Of a stretch of DNA of 64,000 nt, positions 54,207 to 64,000 are shown piece by piece. Location: positions 1-64,000 of the IMG/VR virus record IMGVR_UViG_3300034073_003245; one strand, given 5' to 3'. Under the pieces are notes generated by a model, which worked only from the letters and a program-made list of their open reading frames with translations, had not been told where the DNA came from and did no database searches. Each line of letters begins with the position of its first letter. The first letter of the stretch is position 1. The position numbers and the translations under genes were made by a program. The DNA comes from a virus.

Positions 54207-56276
54207 ATGGCCTGGAACTCAACACAGAACAAGTCTCTATCCGGACAGTCTTCTAAGGCTGCAGTTGGCCCTGGGGCGCCTATTGCACAAAACCTGGCAC
54301 TTGCTGGTCGTCCGTACACTGACTCATGGGACATTGAGCGCGTTTACAAAGAGGGCATGCAGAAGGTCACCTGGGTGGCTAGGTGCATTGACGCAATCGC
54401 AGGAAACCAAGCAAGACTCCCGATTATTCTCCGAAAAGACAATTCTCCGGATGGGGAAGTATTGAGCGGAAGCAAGGCCAAAAACTCCGAACTTCTTAAG
54501 ATCCTGAATACGAAGAGCAATATCGGGGAAAACTCATTTATCTTCAGGTACAGGCTTTCATCGCAACTCCTCATGAGTTCTAGGGGCGCTTTCATTGAGA
54601 AGATCAGGGGGCGCGACGGGAGTATCGTTGGCCTCAACCTTTTGCCGCCACAAGCAACTGCACCAATACCTGATCCAAAGAAGTTTGTTGCTGGCTACGA
54701 AGTAAAAATGCCAAACGGCGGTGCCGTGTACATGAAGCCTGAAGATGTTGTTTGGGTTCGTCGTCCACACCCGCTTGATCCATACCTTTCGCTCACTCCG
54801 CTGGAGGCTGCGGGAATCGCGGTTGAAATTGAGAACTTGGCAAAGGTCTACAACAGAAACTTTCTCCTCAATGACGGCAGACCTGGAGGAATCGTTGTTC
54901 TTCGTGGCGAGATTGACGACGACGACAAAGAAGAAATAAAAAACAGATTCCGTGGAAACCTAACAAAAGCGGGTCAAACAACAGTTATTTCCTCGGACGA
55001 TGGAGCAGACTTTGTAGACACTTCGTCAAGCCCGAGAGACGCTGCCTACATACAAATGCGCCAGATCACCAAAGAGGAGATTCTCGCTTCCTTTGGTGTT
55101 CCTGAGTCGGTCATCGGCAATGCCTCGGGCAGAACATTCTCCAATGCTGGCGAAGAAATTAGAGTCTTCTGGAATGAAACAATGCTCCCCCATCTTGAGC
55201 CTCTCGCTAGGGCTCTTGATGAACTTGATGAGCAGTATTACGTTGACTTTGACACAAGCCAGGTACCTGTTCTTATTCTCTACGAACAGGAGAGAATGCG
55301 TTACATCAAGGAAGAACTTAGCCAGGGGCTTATCAGCGTCAACGAATACAGGATTGCCGCCGGCATGAAGGAAGTTGAGAGCGATCTTGCCGACTCACTT
55401 CTGATGAACCCAAACCTGACCCCCATTGCAAACACAAAAAAGAAGATGGAGGAGCAGACGCAGGCCCAGGTCCAGGGGCCCCCAGGAATGCCGGGGATGC
55501 CCCCAGGCGCTCCCCCGGGGATGCCGCCCGGAATGCCGGGAGCAGGTCCGGTCGGAGCGGGTGGTCCACCGGGGGCGCCAGATCCAACGACCATGGAAGG
55601 CGCAATGCAACTCGCCGGACAAACCCAGGCAATGGCAGAAGATGCTACTGGCACAACAGACCTTCCACCTCTTCCAGTCGCAGAGCCCGAGGTTGCTCCC
55701 GCTACCGCATCAGCACCTTCGGGCGGAATACAGACGAAGTCTGAAGATGAGTGGGACAAGAAGATTAAGACAACATTTAACAGGTGGACAGAAATCCTTG
55801 ACAGAAGCCTTGAGAGGGTTTTTGAGCGCCAACAGAGAGTCGTCCTTGAAAAGGCAACTGGCGCAAAATCTAAAAAACAGATAGAAACCGGTTTGCTGGA
55901 TGTTGATTCAGTTTTCTCAATTGACACTTGGGATAAGCAGATGGACGAAGACATCAAGCCAGTTCTTTCTGCAATCATCAATGATGCGCAAGAAACCTAC
56001 GCAGAAAAAAGCCTCATCAAGTCTCACATGAAGAAAGAGGACATAATCGCCCACATTGACTCTCAGATGTTGAGAATCAAAGCGATTAACGAAGAAACAT
56101 CCTCAGAGATCAGTAGCGCAATTTTTGCTACACTTTCCATTAGGGACCCCGAAGAGCGAGCAACGGCACTTAGGAGCGCTATTGTCACAACTTTCACCAA
56201 TCTTCTGGCAAAGAAGCGTGGACAAATTGCTGAAGACGAAGCCCGTCGTGCCTGGTCAGTTGGTGCCCAAATATAA
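54207..56276 (+). CDS. HK97-family portal protein with Pro/Gly linker and C-terminal extra domain
   Basis: WVARCIDAIA, NF..N...PGGI, EEILASFGVP, ISVNEYR; MPGMPP linker. Confidence 0.9.
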   Translation: MAWNSTQNKSLSGQSSKAAVGPGAPIAQNLALAGRPYTDSWDIERVYKEGMQKVTWVARCIDAIAGNQARLPIILRKDNSPDGEVLSGSKAKNSELLKILNTKSNIGENSFIFRYRLSSQLLMSSRGAFIEKIRGRDGSIVGLNLLPPQATAPIPDPKKFVAGYEVKMPNGGAVYMKPEDVVWVRRPHPLDPYLSLTPLEAAGIAVEIENLAKVYNRNFLLNDGRPGGIVVLRGEIDDDDKEEIKNRFRGNLTKAGQTTVISSDDGADFVDTSSSPRDAAYIQMRQITKEEILASFGVPESVIGNASGRTFSNAGEEIRVFWNETMLPHLEPLARALDELDEQYYVDFDTSQVPVLILYEQERMRYIKEELSQGLISVNEYRIAAGMKEVESDLADSLLMNPNLTPIANTKKKMEEQTQAQVQGPPGMPGMPPGAPPGMPPGMPGAGPVGAGGPPGAPDPTTMEGAMQLAGQTQAMAEDATGTTDLPPLPVAEPEVAPATASAPSGGIQTKSEDEWDKKIKTTFNRWTEILDRSLERVFERQQRVVLEKATGAKSKKQIETGLLDVDSVFSIDTWDKQMDEDIKPVLSAIINDAQETYAEKSLIKSHMKKEDIIAHIDSQMLRIKAINEETSSEISSAIFATLSIRDPEERATALRSAIVTTFTNLLAKKRGQIAEDEARRAWSVGAQI

Positions 56277-56385
56277 ATCTGTAAATTAGCCAAATAATTT
56301 AAAGATTTATCAATATCTTCAAATTGATACTTCCCTTCGTGCCGGTTTTTATGACCTATTATTTTTGAAGTCACCGAGGAGTCGT

Positions 56386-59300
56386 ATGTCATATAGCAAC
56401 ATTGAGTTCAAGTCAAACCCGGGCCAATTCAACATTGACGAGGCCCAGGGCATCGTTGAGTGTTTCGTGGCGGGCATTGGCAACAAAGACTCGGTAGGCG
56501 ACGTTCTTGTTCCTGGAGCATTTTCAGAAAGCCTTAAGAGAAGAAAGCCTCGCGTTGTGTGGGGCCACAACTGGAATGACCCAATTGGAAAAGTCCTAGA
56601 GATTTATGAGGTTGGCCCTGGAGACGCCAGACTCCCACAGAAGATGCGCCAGGCCGGAATCGGCGGTCTTTACGCCAAAGTGCAATTCAACCTGAATTCG
56701 GAGAAGGGTCGCGAGGCTTTTGCCAACGTGGCTTTCTTCGGCCATGAGCAAGAGTGGTCAATTGGATACAAGACCATTGACTCAATCCATGACCCAGGCG
56801 TCAAGGCGAACATCCTCAAGGAAGTTGAACTTTACGAAGTTTCGCCAGTTCTTCACGGCGCCAACCAGTTGACTGGCACAATTTCTGTAAAGTCAGACGA
56901 TCTGGCCCTGGCCGATGCAGAAAAGGGTTGGGGCATGGGGATGCCACACCACATGATGGGCATGAAGCCGCAGCAACCACAGGTCATCGTTATTAGAGAA
57001 GACGACGATGATGATGACAAGTACGAGTCTGAGAAGCCGATTTTTGCCGAGGGGCTCGCTCAGCCGATTGGCGGACAACAGCGACGTATGCTTGAAAAAG
57101 AAATCGCTGAAAGAACCGGTTCTCAAATCCGCCTAATTGAGGCGACCGAAAACACGGCAGTTTTTTCAAGAATGATGCCTACTGGCGGAACAATGGTTTT
57201 CCGCGTCAGTTATCACACCCCTGACAATTTCAGAACTTTTATGTTTGGCAAGCCGGAACTTGCAGACGGCCAAGTGACAATGCCGGGTGCGACGCAAAAG
57301 CCAAGAACGGTTGTTCCCTCCCAGATGCCATCAATGCCCATGCAGGTTAAGCCCGGCTATTCGCAAGACGAAATGGGGATGTATTCATTCCCTAAGTCTG
57401 GTGAGACGGAAAAGTCTGATCTAGGTTCCCAGATTCAGGCCATTGAGGACATCCTCATGGCTGAAACTGAGGAAAAAGTTGGCAGAACCCTCAATAGAAG
57501 AAATCTTTCAAAACTGAAGTCAGTCATGGAGAGCCTTCAAGAAATAATTGCTTCTGCTGAAAAGGAAATGGACACAAAGGGGTACGTGATCCCGGTTCCA
57601 TTGGAAGAGGCATTTAGCACCAAGCAACTTCTAGATCCAATCTTTGACTATCACAGAGTTGAGACTCAAGTTACAGAAGACGGAATTGTCATTACTTCCG
57701 GAGTTACACAGGAATTCATAGAGGCAATTGGCGTTGCCGAAAAAGCGCTCGGGCGCACGCTGAGGGGCGGCCCGGGAAAAGCGCGCCGCGCCGGGCGCGG
57801 CCTGGCGGCACGCTTTGATCCAAACGCCTGGGACGGAGACGGAGACGGCTTAGTTCAGGAAGGTACACCTTTCCAGCGTCCTGCGATTCCAGGAGTTAAC
57901 GACCGTTCAACTCGCGGAAGAGTTGACCCAGCAGCAGCAACACAGGCCTGGCAAACAGGTCAGCGCGGAATGGCTTCGCGCGGCGGTCGCCGTATCACCT
58001 TGGGCAATGCGAACCCGAATAGTTTGGGCCCGATGTACGGCTATGACCCAGAAGAGCAGGACTTCAGTTCTGAATCTTATTGGGAAGAAGTTTTTACAGA
58101 CAGCGACGATATGTTGCCGTTTTTTCAGGAATGGCTTGAAAAGGAAAAAGGCAAAGAAGCGCTCTGGCATGAACTATCAGATGATGAATTTGAAGAATTG
58201 GTTGATAAGTGGAAGTCAAGCGATGCGTTTGAAAAAGACGTAAAACGCTACGCTGAAATTCAGGCCGATGAAGGAATAGAAGATGGCGAAGCATTTAGGT
58301 CCCTATTCAAGCGGTCAACGCTTGACAAAGTGTGGGTAAGAAACGAACCCAAAGAACGCGGGATGGCATCTCGCGCCGATGTTTTGACAGATCTGGCCAT
58401 AGATAGCGACGTATCTGAAGCAATAGATTCTATTGTCAGAGAAGTGCTTGTTTATTCTGGGACAGGGGATAAAGACAAGATTTCTGACTTGGTTTCAGAC
58501 GCGGCCAGAGAGATTCTTGACTCCATTAATTTTGACTCCATCAAAGACAGCCCTGGTAAAGCAGTTTCTGATTTCAGAAAAAAACTTGTGGAAACACTGT
58601 CAGACGAGGACTTTTTGCGCGAAGCAATGAGGAAAAAGGACGCAATTAATGAGTTTGTTGATGGTTTATACGACGCCGTAAATTCTGCTTTTGAAAAATA
58701 TGAAGATCATCTCAAAAAAACTGGTGGAGACTTTGAAGACTTTGCCGATTTGAAATTTGAACTCCTTGATGACCTTGACGGAAGAGTTTCTAAAATTCTC
58801 AATTCATCGCGCAAATTATTTGGCGAACTAAAATCAAAGAAAACTGAAGACGAATATAAGTCCAGAGATGAACGTAGAAAGTTAATTGCCTCAATACGGG
58901 CAGGGGAACTTCCTAAAGACTGGAGAGGTAGAGAGACAGAAGACCTAGTGGATGGTCGTGTTGCGTATGAGGAAGCACTTGAAGAAATTGTAAACAACAG
59001 CCCAGATGCAGACATTGACGAGTTGATGTCTGACTATATTGAGGCCGTCAGAGAGGGCGCTAGGAAAAATCCGGACAACAGAGTCCTCGCAGTCCTTGCT
59101 GATGTGTACGGAGATGATGGGAAAATAACAGACGAAGAACTCAAGAGAAACCTGCAGGACGTAGCAAGACGCTCTCCATTTAACAAAAAGAGGGGCAGAA
59201 ATGAGAAAGAAGTTCTTCGCGGCATGGCATCTCGCGGTGGCGGGCGTCCTGGCGACCCGATAACCGACCAAGAGCGCAATAAGGTCAAGAGAGACAGCAC

Positions 59301-62300
59301 TGCCGTATCAATGTTCAAAGAGTCAACAGACTACGACAATGCTTTTAATTCTTGGCAAAAAGCCAACCCTGGAAAGTCGGAAAAAGACTTTGAAAAGTCG
59401 CCGGAATTTACTGATGCACTGGTTGAGTTTGACAGATACCTGCTTGACCAAGCATCAAAGGCCACGGGGATTCGCTACAGCAGAACCATGCCATATAGCG
59501 GTGGTCCAATTTCTCTTGAGCAAATGACTGCTAAGCAAATTCTCAGAGACAGAATGTCTGGGATGTCTCTTGATGATGTCGCTGAAAAAATGAATCTGTC
59601 TCGCGAGAAAGTCAGATCGCTTGAGGCTCAGGAAGTTATGCGCCTGAGAGATGATGCTTCACCTAGAGAAATACTTGCCTACAGAACAATGGGCTTGAGC
59701 CTTGAAGACACAGGTCGTCTCTTTGGCATGCGCCCAGAGGACGTGCGCAAAGCAGAAGCCAAAGAGATGGCCGACATCCGCAAGGATATGGACGACAACA
59801 AACTTATTGAACTCCGGATGATGGGCTTTTCTCTTGATGATCTCGCAGAAATCACCGGAGCCAGTAGGGAAGATCTTCGTAAGCGGGAAATACAAAGACT
59901 AAGAAGAGGCCCAGAAGACGGTGGCGGCGCGCGCGGAATGGCTAGCCGTGGAAGGTCAGAAGACTTTGACGGCGGGTATGACGAGGCGTACGGTCCGACA
60001 CCCCCCATAACAAGAAGGCCGCCGGTCGGAGAATGGGATGTCCTCGTGGGTGAAGAAGCCTACGAGAGAGAAGATGCCAGCAGGCAGCAACGCGGCATGG
60101 CAAGCCAAAACGTTAGACCAAACGCCGGTCTAGTTAAGTACTCAACAGATCTATTGAATGAAAAACTTGAAGACCTGGACTCAGATCCTCAACCAGGAAT
60201 GGCCGGAGCGACCCTTGATAAGACATGGGCAGAGGGAGTGCTTGATGGGCTTCGTGACGGCAGACTTTCATCTGATGACGCAATCAACATCATTGGCCTA
60301 GCAGGCAACGATGTCTTTAACGAAGGCAAGAAGCCAGAAGGCGAAAGAAACCAGGCACTCATTGATTCACGTATCAAGTTGAGCAAGAGGCTAAGAAGGT
60401 CTGTCGTTGATTCAATGTCCGAGGGCGACATGGAGGAATACCAGGCAAATCGCCGCAGAAGAATGGGTGCTGATCGTGGAATGAGAAGCACTCTTTCTGA
60501 GGCAAACAGAAGGAGGGATGCCGGCCTTACTCCAGGCACTGGTGATCCATCCCCGGGAACACGTGGCCAAAGAGTGGCATCAAGTGGCGGCGAGTACAAG
60601 CCGAACACAGAAGAAAGAGATGCTGCGATTATTCAAAGGCTGAGAGACATAGGCCTTAGCGATGATGAAATTTCCGAATTGACTGGAATAGACAATCTTC
60701 CAGACGCAGAAAGAGGAATGGCATCAAGAGAAATAAAACTAAACAATCGGCAGATTGATAACGCCTTATCAGAACTTGACAATTTGACAGATGATCGTGG
60801 TTATGAAGATTGGGAATCAATCCAAAAACTGCGTCAGCAATTGTCGGACGCCAAAGACAACAACGGAGTTTTTTCTCCTTCTGAGAGGGATATTGAGGAC
60901 TATCTTGACGAACTAGAAAAACTTGAAGATGCAGGATTTGACGACTGGGAAGGTCTGTCAATGATCCGTTCTATTATTAGTGATTCTAGGGGCGAACGTG
61001 GCATGCGCTCAAGAAACTCCGAAATAGATATGACCCTTGAGGAATACGGTCAACTTCTTGACACTCTTGACAAATATGTTGACGGAAGCGCGGGCGAGGG
61101 AGTCGGCGCTGATGACGACATGCGTGTTCTTCAGCAGGTAATGGACAAACTTGAGGCGAGCCAAAACGCCAATGACGCAGTTGAACTAACGTCTGACGAA
61201 ATTTCTGACTATCTAGACAGTCTTAAGAATATCCGCGACAACGGTCCAATGGAGGACGCGACTTCTGGCGACAAGGCTAATATCAACAAGTTGATCTCAG
61301 CCCTTGAGGGGGCTAGGGATTCACGGGATGGATCCTACGAGACGCCGGCATTAAGGCGTTCCGGCGCAAGAATTAGCGACCAGCAGGGAAGGGCGTTTAG
61401 GTCATCAAGCGGAACTGTTAACCCTCACGAAAAAATTGAGATGACCCTCAACGGCGATGATATCTCAGCAATGGTTGAAGACATTGACGCGCTTCTGAAA
61501 CAAACCCCAAATTCCGCAGCACTTAAGGCTGCTAGAGAAAAGTTCTCAAAGGCCAAGACTGGTGAAAAGATCACCATGGATAAAGACGAGTACGAGCAAC
61601 TCTACAAAGACATTGAGACAGCAAAAACGCAGGGCAATAGGGTCACTTCTGAACTCGCATCACTTCTTGACCAGGCAGCAGAAAGCAAAGATGGCAAGTA
61701 CGTTGACCCCAACCTAAGAGGACGCGGCGGTATGGCGTCTCGTAATAATGGGGCTCCTTCAGACATTACAGAGGCAATGCAGAAGGAATACATCTTCTGG
61801 GCCAGAAATAACCCAAATCTTTTTGTCGCTCAAAGAATCCTGAAGAAGTACGACGATAACGATGGACAATTGTCCGCTAGGGACTGGAGAGCGCTTGACA
61901 CTCTCTACACGAACTTAAGCCCACGTGGAGGCGGTCGTCGCTCTGGAATGAGATCTCGTTCGGGCCGTGATGCGGAAATAGAGAAACAGAAAAAAATAGA
62001 CGCCGAAAGAATGCGATCAGGCTCCACCACGGGATCGGAGAGCGAAAGAATTGGCAGATCTTCAGAGGGAACTGGAGTCTCAGCCAGTGGTCTTGGAGAC
62101 ATTGGCATTCGTGGTGAAGGCGCAAGCCAGAGGACAGAAACACCTGGCCCTTCAGAGAAGAAATTTACAGGGAAGTCATTCAATGAAGTCCAACCAGATA
62201 ACTGGGAATCTCTTGACATTGAGGAGAAGTACGACTGGCTATTCAGCAATGGCAAGCCGGAGGTTTCAGGAATGTCGCCGGCGGCCTATGAGGGCGCTCT

Positions 62301-63282
62301 CAAGAAGTTAATTGCGGAAGAAGAGGCTCTTGAAAAGGCCAATACCCGCAGAGCCAGAAGAGCAGGGGCGGGCCAAGATCGCGGAATGGCATCACGTGGA
62401 AGAACCCCGAGTCAAAATGCCACCTATGACTGGGTTAACAATTTAAGCAGCCCTACTGAAAAATGGCTTGAAGAAAAGAATAAAGCAACCCTTGATTCGT
62501 ATAAGGAATGGAAAAAAAACCTGGGAACTATAACCCCAGGAGGACAAGCGCCAGAGATGCTCAGGGGCATGTCTTCTCGCTCCGGTGGTTCTGGTCGCCA
62601 GGGAAGAACAATGATTACCGACGAAGCAACATACTTCGGTGAGATTGAGAAGAACCTCCCAGTTGAGATAAGAAAAGCAACAGAAGCAAAAGAATCAAAA
62701 ATTTCCCAAGCATTATCGCTGCTGCAGGACATTATCAAGAAACAAGAAGCATCAAAGACCGGTTCAAGAAGAACCAATACGGGAAGCATTTTTGTAACAG
62801 CCGACGAGGCTGATCGTATTCTTGATGCGCTTATGTGGGTTATTGATAGACAGGTCCAAAGAAATGGCAACGAAGAAAGAATATCTGCTTTTGCAAAACT
62901 GGTTGACAAGATGGCACAAGCCGCCATGTCAACTTTTGTAAACAGAGACACATCAGAAATCGGTTCTCGCACTACAAAAAGAACCAACAGCCGAGGAAAA
63001 GAAGTTGAGATCCCCGATGCCGGTATAGGCCTGCCAAGAGGAATGGCTTCTAGTTCTAATTTAGGCGGTTACAATAGACGCAGAACACAAGCGGCGGACA
63101 AAAAATTTGAAGACATCCTTCGTGAGGAAGTTGAAACAAAATTGACTCCAGATCAGCAGAAAAGATACAGCAAACTATACGAAGCAGAAATGGCCAAGTA
63201 CGGCGGCGCTGGGCTGGCATTAAAGAGACAAGAAAAAAAAGAAATACACCAAAGAATCATGAAAGAAATTCTCGGCCAGTAA
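56386..63282 (+). CDS. HK97-type prohead protease fused to a ~1,770-aa multi-module cargo polyprotein
   Basis: GAGGAG RBS before the ATG at 56386; DSVGDV..PGAF, WGHNW (His), EWSIGY (Ser), LYEVSPV..GAN; followed by 13 RGMASR-like motifs. Confidence 0.88.
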   Translation: MSYSNIEFKSNPGQFNIDEAQGIVECFVAGIGNKDSVGDVLVPGAFSESLKRRKPRVVWGHNWNDPIGKVLEIYEVGPGDARLPQKMRQAGIGGLYAKVQFNLNSEKGREAFANVAFFGHEQEWSIGYKTIDSIHDPGVKANILKEVELYEVSPVLHGANQLTGTISVKSDDLALADAEKGWGMGMPHHMMGMKPQQPQVIVIREDDDDDDKYESEKPIFAEGLAQPIGGQQRRMLEKEIAERTGSQIRLIEATENTAVFSRMMPTGGTMVFRVSYHTPDNFRTFMFGKPELADGQVTMPGATQKPRTVVPSQMPSMPMQVKPGYSQDEMGMYSFPKSGETEKSDLGSQIQAIEDILMAETEEKVGRTLNRRNLSKLKSVMESLQEIIASAEKEMDTKGYVIPVPLEEAFSTKQLLDPIFDYHRVETQVTEDGIVITSGVTQEFIEAIGVAEKALGRTLRGGPGKARRAGRGLAARFDPNAWDGDGDGLVQEGTPFQRPAIPGVNDRSTRGRVDPAAATQAWQTGQRGMASRGGRRITLGNANPNSLGPMYGYDPEEQDFSSESYWEEVFTDSDDMLPFFQEWLEKEKGKEALWHELSDDEFEELVDKWKSSDAFEKDVKRYAEIQADEGIEDGEAFRSLFKRSTLDKVWVRNEPKERGMASRADVLTDLAIDSDVSEAIDSIVREVLVYSGTGDKDKISDLVSDAAREILDSINFDSIKDSPGKAVSDFRKKLVETLSDEDFLREAMRKKDAINEFVDGLYDAVNSAFEKYEDHLKKTGGDFEDFADLKFELLDDLDGRVSKILNSSRKLFGELKSKKTEDEYKSRDERRKLIASIRAGELPKDWRGRETEDLVDGRVAYEEALEEIVNNSPDADIDELMSDYIEAVREGARKNPDNRVLAVLADVYGDDGKITDEELKRNLQDVARRSPFNKKRGRNEKEVLRGMASRGGGRPGDPITDQERNKVKRDSTAVSMFKESTDYDNAFNSWQKANPGKSEKDFEKSPEFTDALVEFDRYLLDQASKATGIRYSRTMPYSGGPISLEQMTAKQILRDRMSGMSLDDVAEKMNLSREKVRSLEAQEVMRLRDDASPREILAYRTMGLSLEDTGRLFGMRPEDVRKAEAKEMADIRKDMDDNKLIELRMMGFSLDDLAEITGASREDLRKREIQRLRRGPEDGGGARGMASRGRSEDFDGGYDEAYGPTPPITRRPPVGEWDVLVGEEAYEREDASRQQRGMASQNVRPNAGLVKYSTDLLNEKLEDLDSDPQPGMAGATLDKTWAEGVLDGLRDGRLSSDDAINIIGLAGNDVFNEGKKPEGERNQALIDSRIKLSKRLRRSVVDSMSEGDMEEYQANRRRRMGADRGMRSTLSEANRRRDAGLTPGTGDPSPGTRGQRVASSGGEYKPNTEERDAAIIQRLRDIGLSDDEISELTGIDNLPDAERGMASREIKLNNRQIDNALSELDNLTDDRGYEDWESIQKLRQQLSDAKDNNGVFSPSERDIEDYLDELEKLEDAGFDDWEGLSMIRSIISDSRGERGMRSRNSEIDMTLEEYGQLLDTLDKYVDGSAGEGVGADDDMRVLQQVMDKLEASQNANDAVELTSDEISDYLDSLKNIRDNGPMEDATSGDKANINKLISALEGARDSRDGSYETPALRRSGARISDQQGRAFRSSSGTVNPHEKIEMTLNGDDISAMVEDIDALLKQTPNSAALKAAREKFSKAKTGEKITMDKDEYEQLYKDIETAKTQGNRVTSELASLLDQAAESKDGKYVDPNLRGRGGMASRNNGAPSDITEAMQKEYIFWARNNPNLFVAQRILKKYDDNDGQLSARDWRALDTLYTNLSPRGGGRRSGMRSRSGRDAEIEKQKKIDAERMRSGSTTGSESERIGRSSEGTGVSASGLGDIGIRGEGASQRTETPGPSEKKFTGKSFNEVQPDNWESLDIEEKYDWLFSNGKPEVSGMSPAAYEGALKKLIAEEEALEKANTRRARRAGAGQDRGMASRGRTPSQNATYDWVNNLSSPTEKWLEEKNKATLDSYKEWKKNLGTITPGGQAPEMLRGMSSRSGGSGRQGRTMITDEATYFGEIEKNLPVEIRKATEAKESKISQALSLLQDIIKKQEASKTGSRRTNTGSIFVTADEADRILDALMWVIDRQVQRNGNEERISAFAKLVDKMAQAAMSTFVNRDTSEIGSRTTKRTNSRGKEVEIPDAGIGLPRGMASSSNLGGYNRRRTQAADKKFEDILREEVETKLTPDQQKRYSKLYEAEMAKYGGAGLALKRQEKKEIHQRIMKEILGQ
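57762..57818 (+). promoter_or_regulatory. Putative programmed -1 frameshift signal
   Basis: GAGGGG (57762-67); in-phase G_GGA_AAA (57774-80); hairpin GCCGCGC-CGG-GCGCGGC (57785-801); -1 frame TGA at 57816-18. Confidence 0.6.
57964..63054 (+). repeat. 13 dispersed copies of the peptide motif xGM(A/R/S)S(R/Q/T/S)
   Basis: Motif starts at 57964, 58357, 59218, 59932, 60091, 60475, 60712, 60997, 61726, 61942, 62380, 62563 and 63037. Confidence 0.9.
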
Positions 63283-63453
63283 AAATTCCAAAATCTTGTC
63301 AAAGATTAAAAGAAAGATAGACTAATACAAATAATCGCATTTACTCTCTGCGCACAGCGGAGTTAGTGCTAAGTTATACTTTTACCAAGAAGTTCATATT
63401 TGTGTATTGACAGTTTTTCCTGTCTTGTCGCATAAAACCAGGAGTAAGAAAAA

Positions 63454-64000
63454 ATGGCCGAAAAAGTTCAAGTTAGCATTGACGCCGAGGGCAACGTCCT
63501 TAAGTGTGCAAAAAACCTTGCCGGCGGCGAGTGCGGCTATACGCCTGGCGCAAAAGTGTGTGGCAAGTGTGGTGCCATGCCTATTGAAATGAAGATGGTT
63601 CCGGTTGATGCCGAGGAAAAAGGTGGCGACTGGATGATGGGCGACGAAATGATGCCGGCTAAGAAAAAGAAGAAGGGCGGCATGGCTCTTCCGGACGACC
63701 TTGCTATGGATGAGGATGAGGACGGCGAGATGATGCCGTCAAAGAAAAAGGCCATGGCTGAGGCTATGGAAGACGACGAAGAGGAAATGGACGAAGAGGA
63801 AGGCGCACCAATGCCTTCAAGCAAGAAGGCCATGAACGAGGAGATGGACGACGAAGAGGACGAAGAGGAAGACGACATGGAGGAAGAGGATTCCGACATG
63901 GCTGTTGACCTTGAGGCAGCCAAGAAGAAAAGACTTGCTTCACTTGGCGAGAAGTCCGCAGAATACGGCAAGAACGCCTACATGTGCGCCATTGAGCGCA
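63454..64000 (+). CDS. Acidic scaffold-like protein with N-terminal Cys cluster (runs off the window; absent from ORF track)
   Basis: AGGAG RBS; MAEKVQVSID...KCAK...ECGY....VCGKCG followed by D/E/M/K-rich low-complexity sequence. Confidence 0.7.
   Translation, partial: MAEKVQVSIDAEGNVLKCAKNLAGGECGYTPGAKVCGKCGAMPIEMKMVPVDAEEKGGDWMMGDEMMPAKKKKKGGMALPDDLAMDEDEDGEMMPSKKKAMAEAMEDDEEEMDEEEGAPMPSSKKAMNEEMDDEEDEEEDDMEEEDSDMAVDLEAAKKKRLASLGEKSAEYGKNAYMCAIER

Follow-up and report, generated by a model that had tools for sequence, protein, structure and literature searches.

We analysed a viral DNA stretch of 64,000 nucleotides (nt), hereafter the window, which covers the opening 64 kb of an IMG/VR record of 85,716 bases (IMGVR_UViG_3300034073_003245; completeness estimate 54%). 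The window contains a giant open reading frame (ORF) for a predicted polyprotein of prohead protease, scaffold, and cargo, and at the junction of its scaffold and cargo parts lies a slippery heptamer followed by a GC-rich hairpin, a candidate site of programmed -1 ribosomal frameshifting. The features of this locus are listed below, where aa stands for amino acids, SD for Shine-Dalgarno, and pLDDT for the predicted local distance difference test.

54207 to 56276: portal gene, which precedes the giant ORF (Phage_portal, E 5e-52)
56386 to 63282, plus strand: protease-scaffold-cargo polyprotein gene, 2298 aa and 256 kDa from the ATG at 56386
56449 to 56883, plus strand: prohead serine protease domain (Peptidase_S78, PF04586, E 2e-11; residues 29-173 of the TTG-start ORF)
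57583 to 57750, plus strand: last folded domain of the predicted short form, ferredoxin-like alpha/beta, with the conserved DPIFDYHRVE (residues ~400-459; AlphaFold pLDDT 80-90)
57762 to 57767, plus strand: SD-like GAGGGG, 6 nt 5' of the heptamer
57774 to 57780, plus strand: slippery heptamer G_GGA_AAA, in phase within CCG GGA AAA (57772-57780)
57781 to 57813, plus strand: putative stimulatory RNA structure, a bipartite hairpin that is the predicted optimum
57816 to 57818, plus strand: TGA stop of the -1 frame, 12 codons past the slip; the predicted product ends ...GPGKSAPRRARPGGTL
57814 to 57903, plus strand: conserved tag FDPNAWDGDGDGLVQEGTPFQRPAIPGVND, the first module found only in the long form, with DGDGDG from 57832; common to two other cargo genes
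57964 to 57981, plus strand: first RGMASR motif, a presumed protease cleavage site

The codons CCG GGA AAA read Pro-Gly-Lys, and G_GGA_AAA therefore stands in the X_XXY_YYZ phase. Starting 4 nt past the heptamer, GCCGCGC (57785-57791) pairs perfectly with GCGCGGC (57795-57801) to give a stem of 7 bp closed by a loop of 3 nt (-14.0 kcal/mol). Fold prediction also gives the bipartite hairpin at 57781-57813, which competes with this simple stem, reaches -22.8 kcal/mol over the 36 nt 3' of the heptamer, and ranks first in stability among 763 segments of the ORF. The -1 frame after the heptamer reads GKSAPRRARPGGTL and then TGA, giving a predicted short product of 477 aa (52.6 kDa from the ATG at 56386), while the zero frame runs on for 1835 codons beyond the site. 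An earlier note on this DNA had described GAGGGG, the heptamer, the 7-bp stem, and the -1 TGA as a dnaX-like arrangement in a very GC-rich locality, ahead of the DGDGDG and first RGMASR motifs, and had proposed a protease/scaffold-only form of about 480 aa. All four elements are indeed present, the two motifs start at 57832 and 57964, the GC content of 77% at 57750-57849 is the maximum 100-nt value within 56000-64000, and the size of the predicted short product agrees with the proposal. The giant ORF contains 14 in-phase XXXYYYZ heptamers in its 2298 codons, six of them with A or T as Y, and the heptamer at 57774-57780 alone among the 14 is followed by strong structure. Two further in-phase A_AAA_AAA heptamers lie in the same ORF, at 58578-58584 and 63234-63240, with weak structure downstream (-3.8 and -1.6 kcal/mol, respectively).

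The mechanical ORF begins with the TTG at 56365. Homologues begin at the equivalent of the ATG at 56386 (MSYSNIEFK), and this ATG is the likelier start of the giant gene. The PF04586 profile match that marks the start of the giant ORF as an HK97-type prohead protease scores 44.8 bits against a curated cut-off of 21, the phrog_80 head maturation protease matches its N terminus (E 8.5e-30), and a fold search with the protease returned weak matches to the herpesvirus and T4 gp21 proteases (best E 0.022). The His of WGHNW and the Ser of EWSIG, which we take to be the catalytic residues of the prohead protease, are invariant across 23 sequences.

An AlphaFold model covering residues 1-465 begins with the protease and continues through a disordered linker, a small alpha/beta domain, another disordered segment, and a helical hairpin to a last small alpha/beta domain, whose end lies 5 residues ahead of the Gly-Lys encoded at the heptamer. 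The segment encoded at 57751-57801 has pLDDT values below 50, and the tag beyond it is modelled as a separate module (pLDDT 72-89), with its placement relative to the last domain not resolved by the model (predicted template modelling score 0.40). The slip site is thus predicted to lie in a disordered linker between two folded modules, and such a linker, between the last domain and a self-folding tag, would fit a sequence shaped by the needs of the RNA. A fold search, which barely covered the tag part of the model, found generic neighbours only for the last domain (secretin N domains, KH-like folds, and designed proteins; Z <= 6), and Pfam at E values up to 10 gave no match for either the tag or the last domain. 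The tag may be a targeting or docking module that the cargo genes have in common; its Dx[DN]x[DN]G loop, for which Pfam has no match, presumably resembles the loops of EF-hand and dockerin modules.

The earlier note had suggested looking among homologues for the heptamer, for the stem, and for cases in which the -1 frame encodes the cargo. Using residues 1-612 as the query, a scan of viral contigs gave 322 relatives, of which 80 were kept, and two added scans from the short representatives P0024 and P0051 contributed a further 157 loci. Each junction was tested for an in-phase XXX(AAA/TTT)Z heptamer within codons 25-60 past a conserved DPxxxYH motif, which served as the anchor. We excluded 44 of 238 loci, in which the anchor (with 250 open codons before it) was unmatched or fewer than 75 codons followed it, and the 194 loci used, window included, represent 102 distinct junctions. 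An in-phase slippery heptamer is present in 96 of these 102 junctions, compared to 6.7% expected; the background is 93 such heptamers per 46,660 codon positions upstream of the anchor in the same ORFs.

The spelling of the heptamer is constrained more tightly than the peptide. In the GGGAAAA clades, the preceding codon is CCG, CTG, TTG, TCG, GGG, or TGG (Pro, Leu, Ser, Gly, or Trp), with an invariant G as its third base. The Gly and Lys codons of the heptamer are likewise invariant (GGA and AAA), although nearby Gly codons vary freely. The spelling nnG GGA AAA occurs in only 6 of the 363 Gly-Lys pairs elsewhere in these ORFs, in which GGA accounts for 29% of Gly codons, AAA for 65% of Lys codons, and G for 16.5% of third positions. 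Among 11 close relatives, synonymous differences reach their minimum at PGKARRA (0.17 vs 0.45-0.55 in the flanks), with a second dip at DPIFDYH. The heptamer also switches between relatives among GGGAAAA, CCCAAAA, AAAAAAA, and TTTTTTT, with the encoded residues switching among GK, PK, KK, and FF; one relative (L029) has CTC CCA AAA at the heptamer place, and in some clades A_AAA_AAA encodes Pro/Ser-Lys-Lys or Leu-Lys-Lys-Lys. A FastTree tree of 104 junctions requires at least 14 changes of heptamer label, of which 6 are to or from the label 'none'; one junction (L189), which contains AAAAAAA as well as GGGAAAA, is mislabelled. These comparisons indicate that selection on the heptamer acts at the nucleotide level, beyond the needs of the protein: it is kept at the synonymous level and switches among slippery types.

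Two groups of relatives place or build the heptamer differently. Six loci (L134, L142, L163, L165, L169, and L170) have C_CCT_TTT or T_TTT_TTT, encoding Pro-Phe-Phe, without a strong hairpin. Their heptamer stands before a KALGR motif and not after it, which indicates that the slip position within the linker shifts between clades. In L183-L240, the last domain is followed immediately by Leu-Lys-Lys-Lys encoded as a run of approximately 10 A, in most cases with no hairpin, and this run is a candidate for transcriptional slippage instead of, or besides, ribosomal slippage.

The downstream hairpin was ranked in the window and the first 80 loci, which give 43 distinct junctions (L027 was excluded as too short). 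The 36 nt after the heptamer are within the top 2% of stability of their own ORF in 40 of the 43 junctions, the exceptions being L030, L035, and L032. The stems of the clades differ in register and begin 2-6 nt past the heptamer; they include GAGCAGCC/GGCTGCTT, GCCGCGCC/GGCGCGGT, GGCGCGGC/GCCGCGCT, GGCGCGC/GCGCGCT, and CGGCCC/GGGCCG. In two sub-alignments, 92-94% of cells can pair, compared to 29-56% when the partner is slid, and compensatory pairs occur as well: alignment A2 has one pair counted as GC:8/CG:4, and A3 has three in which both partners differ. One compensatory change turns Arg-Arg-Ala-Arg-Gly-Ala-Leu into Arg-Arg-Gly-Arg-Ala-Ala-Leu, so that here the protein follows the RNA. Among the homologues, it is the GGGAAAA/CCCAAAA clades and some A7 clades that preserve the stem through compensatory changes.

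Two paralogous tags in the same genome, beyond the window (record positions 74241-74426 and 78111-78233; L082 and L083), provide natural controls. Both encode ...IGGG..RRAAR..FDPNAWDGDGDG, or in another rendering ...IGGG.RGARRAARF..FDPNAWDGDGDGIVQEGTPFQRPAIPG, with Arg as AGA/AGG, and both the heptamer and the GC hairpin are absent. These tags belong to giant ORFs with open frames of 1198 and 790 aa and no protease in front, and their FDPNA.DGD.DG...RPA.P lies ~240 aa from the preceding stop. Because no protease-scaffold precedes these tags, a second product is not expected from them.

A flipped layout is found in five contigs from five metagenomes (L085-L089), which share ACC GAA AAA AAA GTC TGA. 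Here the zero frame stops 2 codons past A_AAA_AAA, and the tag (FDPNAVDGDEDG) and 960 further codons are in the -1 frame, which is the arrangement with cargo in the -1 frame that had been looked for. This -1 frame opens just 18 codons upstream, with no ATG, GTG, or TTG in that interval, and the heptamer is followed by a hairpin in the top 1%. Sister contigs with 66-71% identity have the layout of the window. Because the start-less tag/cargo frame lies in -1, this clade would need the shift to reach its tag.

A third, split layout is represented by L079, in which the protease-scaffold ends at the same place and the cargo gene has its own ATG, and the 468-aa representative P0031 ends at this place as well. 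The layout of the window, in which the -1 frame ends soon and the zero frame continues, is found in 87 of the 96 heptamer-bearing junctions. Across these relatives, the short product is apparently encoded by a separate gene, by the zero frame, or, as predicted, by a shift of frame. The co-existence of both frame layouts hints that the shift rate is high or flexible. At the level of sequence, then, comparison of the relatives demonstrates a putative cassette, selection on its nucleotides, and the occurrence of both frame layouts and the split layout.

We interpret the site as a programmed -1 ribosomal frameshift cassette within a prohead protease-scaffold-cargo gene, with a probability of about 0.8, and it is very likely that recoding occurs at 57774-57780. 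A ribosome with GGA in the P site (tRNA-Gly) and AAA in the A site (tRNA-Lys) would be stalled by the GC hairpin 0-4 nt downstream, slip back one base, and re-pair on GGG AAA. The slipped ribosome would read 12 more codons and end at the TGA at 57816, giving the 477-aa protease-scaffold that stops just past the last folded domain, while unslipped ribosomes would give the 2298-aa form with the DGDGDG tag and the RGMASR-punctuated cargo. Both forms would co-assemble into the procapsid via their common N-terminal part, and the fused cargo would be a passenger, freed by cutting at RGMASR-type motifs. As in Gag/Gag-Pol systems, a fixed ratio of the two forms would then determine how many cargo copies each head receives, and shifting would presumably take place at a useful rate. 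If the fused cargo enters as a passenger, the shift rate would set the cargo dose per head, and we give this part of the interpretation only slightly better than even odds.

A bolder extension, which we regard as rather unlikely, is that the slip site is an evolutionary toggle of cargo loading. The zero-frame-long, zero-frame-short, and split layouts interchange, which would suggest a shift of ~50% or a freely tunable ratio. The short form would be a free docking partner for the DGDGDG-type tags of other giant cargos, and the shift rate would set the cis-fused and tag-docked shares of the injected protein load.

Several observations weigh against the frameshift interpretation. Dinucleotide shuffles of the same GC-rich stretch give a z of -1.72, with 14 of 200 folding equally well, and the anomaly at the site is one of local base composition, not of a fold beyond it. 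Any -1 shift in these ORFs reaches a stop after a median of 7 codons, and 73% of positions do so within 14 codons; we rejected the shortness of the -1 extension as evidence because background -1 stops are equally near. Since the shuffles, the 14 heptamers, and the short background extensions leave the single-genome features weak, the case rests on the relatives. Among these, six of the 102 junctions (L032, L079, L097, L147, L172, and L173) are without the heptamer, as is L242, and the junction counts overstate the number of independent events because the sequences are related. In the wider set, the hairpin is in the top 5% in only 54 of 96 junctions, and the A9-10-run and T-run clades are mostly without it; in those clades, the slip may be unaided or may be made by RNA polymerase. 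In addition, the zero-frame default is the long form. With inefficient shifting, 1,800 aa of cargo would be attached to most molecules, a situation that fits the idea of few cargo copies less easily.

The SD-like element is a further point of this kind. GAGGGG lies only 6 nt from the heptamer, a spacing at which stimulation of -1 shifts is not known, and the SD-like element of dnaX stands approximately 10-14 nt upstream of its heptamer. The 18 nt upstream of the heptamer pair with the anti-SD sequence at -7.9 kcal/mol in the window, and the family median is -6.4 vs -2.2 for the background, values that are confounded by Gly codons. GAGGGG is therefore only a candidate stimulator of the shift. 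An Rfam scan of 57650-57950 found no frameshift element and nothing above chance (best E 1.4, a microRNA model). Of the dnaX architecture drawn in the earlier note, the heptamer, the hairpin, and the early -1 stop hold, while the part given to the SD-like element is less certain, in view of its 6-nt spacing and the Gly codons, and the arrangement has no counterpart in Rfam. We also considered the hairpin as an intrinsic terminator and rejected this reading: a consensus scan found no terminator-like site at 57781-57830, and just TTT follows the hairpin.

Of the alternatives, the one that survives best accepts the shift and makes it a mere valve, which lowers the costly translation of the cargo or terminates some ribosomes and leaves the truncated protein as a by-product with no role. 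Such a valve would have the same cassette and would be indistinguishable by sequence alone, and the -1 tails are indeed short and unconserved (GKS, GKR, GKSKGSR, and GKSAPRRARPGGTL, each followed by a stop). However, truncation always falls directly past the last folded domain of the protease-scaffold, and the same product is found as a stand-alone gene (L079 and P0031) and as a zero-frame product (the L085 clade). On these two grounds we argue that the short form is a working protein, and we consider a mere valve improbable.

A second alternative attributes the frame change to slippage of RNA polymerase instead of the ribosome. The A9 run of Thermus dnaX works by transcriptional realignment, and homopolymer runs of ~8 or more A or T are the threshold for transcriptional slippage. 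Many relatives have runs of 8-10 A or of at least 7 T, which are typical slippage templates, often without a strong hairpin. However, the window and 41 of the 104 labelled junctions (one mislabelled, L189) have GGGAAAA, with only four A's, a run that on this established knowledge is too short for the polymerase. The GGGAAAA clades are also those with the strong covarying hairpin, placed 4-6 nt 3' of the heptamer, and the X_XXY_YYZ phase is kept, which is relevant to tRNA re-pairing and not to the polymerase. We give this explanation very little weight as a general account of the site.

A third alternative, in which nothing is recoded and the heptamer and stem are by-products of codon bias and of a conserved Gly-Lys/Arg-Ala-Gly-rich linker peptide (for example, a cleavage or docking site), can point to the protein-level conservation of G-K and R-R-A-x-R in many relatives, to the GC-rich and partly self-complementary codons of Arg, Ala, and Gly, and to a fold in the window that is unremarkable for its composition, but it seems largely refuted and is highly improbable: codon choice is fixed far past bias (6 of 363 other GK pairs), the preceding codon swaps its residue and retains its third base, heptamer types switch while the residues change among GK, PK, KK, and FF, the paralogous tags contain neither heptamer nor hairpin although their peptide is the same, a disordered linker is predicted, and the tag of the L085 clade would be reachable only by a shift.

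The programmed frameshift proposed here resembles several known systems, each in part. In Escherichia coli dnaX, which encodes tau and gamma, the heptamer A_AAA_AAG is accompanied by an upstream SD-like element and a downstream stem-loop. As in dnaX, a -1 slip on X_XXY_YYZ before a stable hairpin would lead to a nearby stop, giving full-length and C-terminally truncated forms with a shared N-terminal part. Unlike dnaX, the gene and the heptamer are different, the SD-like hexamer is 6 nt and not ~10 nt from the heptamer, and the products would be cargo-free and cargo-bearing forms of a virion protease-scaffold instead of forms of a polymerase subunit. The resemblance is one of mechanism, not of descent.

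In the Gag/Gag-Pol systems of retroviruses and totiviruses, an assembly protein and its fusion to a passenger enzyme are made at a fixed ratio from one mRNA, which sets the number of passengers per particle. The L085-L089 contigs have exactly this layout, with a zero-frame stop and a start-less passenger in the -1 frame. The window has the reverse arrangement: the zero frame encodes the fusion, and a slip would give the short form. The window also differs in belonging to a double-stranded DNA tailed phage, and its cargo is a multi-module polyprotein that is probably cut by the fused protease.

Among phages, the lambda G/GT heptamer is G_GGA_AAG, and a strong hairpin is not usual in the frameshifts of tail chaperones. 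The -1 frameshift in the tail assembly chaperone genes of tailed phages was reportedly found to be conserved by Xu, Hendrix and Duda in 2004, lambda G/GT being the example. The present site is similar in lying in a phage morphogenesis gene, in the conservation of the slip site across diverged relatives, in its heptamers, and in the two forms predicted at a fixed ratio; it is different in that the tail chaperone shift acts in the tail and extends the protein, whereas the shift proposed here would act in the head and truncate it.

Nested protease/scaffold pairs are known from lambda (C/Nu3), Mu (I/Z), and the herpesviruses (UL26/UL26.5), where an internal in-frame start gives products with a shared C terminus. 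The in-frame internal start of Mu is mentioned in one report (PMC4378225). Like these pairs, the gene in the window would make two head-assembly proteins that share one end, at a set ratio, from one stretch of DNA, and with a protease fold of the HK97/herpesvirus kind. Unlike them, it would use a frameshift, and the shared end would be the N terminus.

In Lactobacillus phage A2 (cited in PMC5221750) and in MSTV1-like archaeal viruses (PMC11375127), -1 frameshifts in genes for major head or tail proteins are reported to add a C-terminal domain. Such shifts are alike in using C_CCA_AAA or a similar heptamer, with or without a stem-loop, to make two forms of one virion protein. They differ in concerning capsid or tail subunits and small Ig-like domains, and not a maturation protease, a scaffold, or internal cargo. 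A full-text literature search, with most subscription journals outside its reach, found no published report of a frameshift at a prohead protease/scaffold junction. The available sections of PMC7230728, PMC5155283, PMC5512222, PMC4378225, PMC7302621, PMC5221750, and PMC11375127 give no account of frameshifting in genes for a prohead protease or a scaffold, and the polyvalent proteins paper mentions frameshifting 0 times. The published phage frameshifts that were found are in tail chaperones and in capsid or tail subunits (PMC5221750 and PMC11375127 among them).

Our comparisons support a dnaX-style -1 frameshift in a new place, in a large family of uncultured phages and with interchangeable layouts. 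To our knowledge, few early-stop programmed frameshifts have been described outside dnaX. Gene finders, which see an intact ORF, will hardly ever notice a frameshift of this type, and the predicted 477-aa product is absent from any gene call. If the interpretation is correct, tailed phages would have a Gag/Gag-Pol-like means of dosing internal or injected proteins per capsid, which would explain how 250-kDa polyproteins reach the procapsid. The relatives also offer naturally varied bacterial frameshift cassettes, with four heptamer types, many hairpins, and both layouts, for the study of what determines shift efficiency.

The family comprises 4562 cluster representatives at E <= 0.001, with lengths of 180-5358 aa among the best 150, and its members are uncultured phages. 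Comparison of 56365-58400 with cultured phage records by blastn gave no match. By tblastn, cultured phages (of Gordonia, Brevibacterium, Streptomyces, Arthrobacter, and other phages) match in the protease domain alone (aa 5-188, <=43% identity), and because they share this domain only, there is no cultured model. One of them, Gordonia phage DalanDe (L084, ON755184.1 22424-27325), has an annotated 'capsid maturation protease' of 1633 aa with the S78 domain ~1120 aa from its start; the large extra part is N-terminal to the protease, the reverse of the layout in the window.

Contigs from four DNA runs of one subsurface study match the stretch with no indel or variant at the site, and three of the four runs may be source samples. 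Because these contigs match without indels, the slip site is not an assembly error. The search of sequencing runs for the stretch returned DNA runs only, with no RNA run among the matches. We tried to assign a host from the bins of metagenome-assembled genomes: five matches are in genome contigs of four unrelated groups (Bacteroidia, Phycisphaerae, Gammaproteobacteria, and Nitriliruptoraceae), and since this spread probably reflects mis-binning, the assignment was rejected and no host is inferred. Among these matches, L243 has GGGAAAA and the hairpin, L242 is without the heptamer, and a further two are short genes that stand alone and are of a different kind. The ORF after the giant gene (63454-64000 of the window) is very acidic, containing D, E, and M runs, and its N terminus includes a stretch rich in Cys (C..C...C..C).

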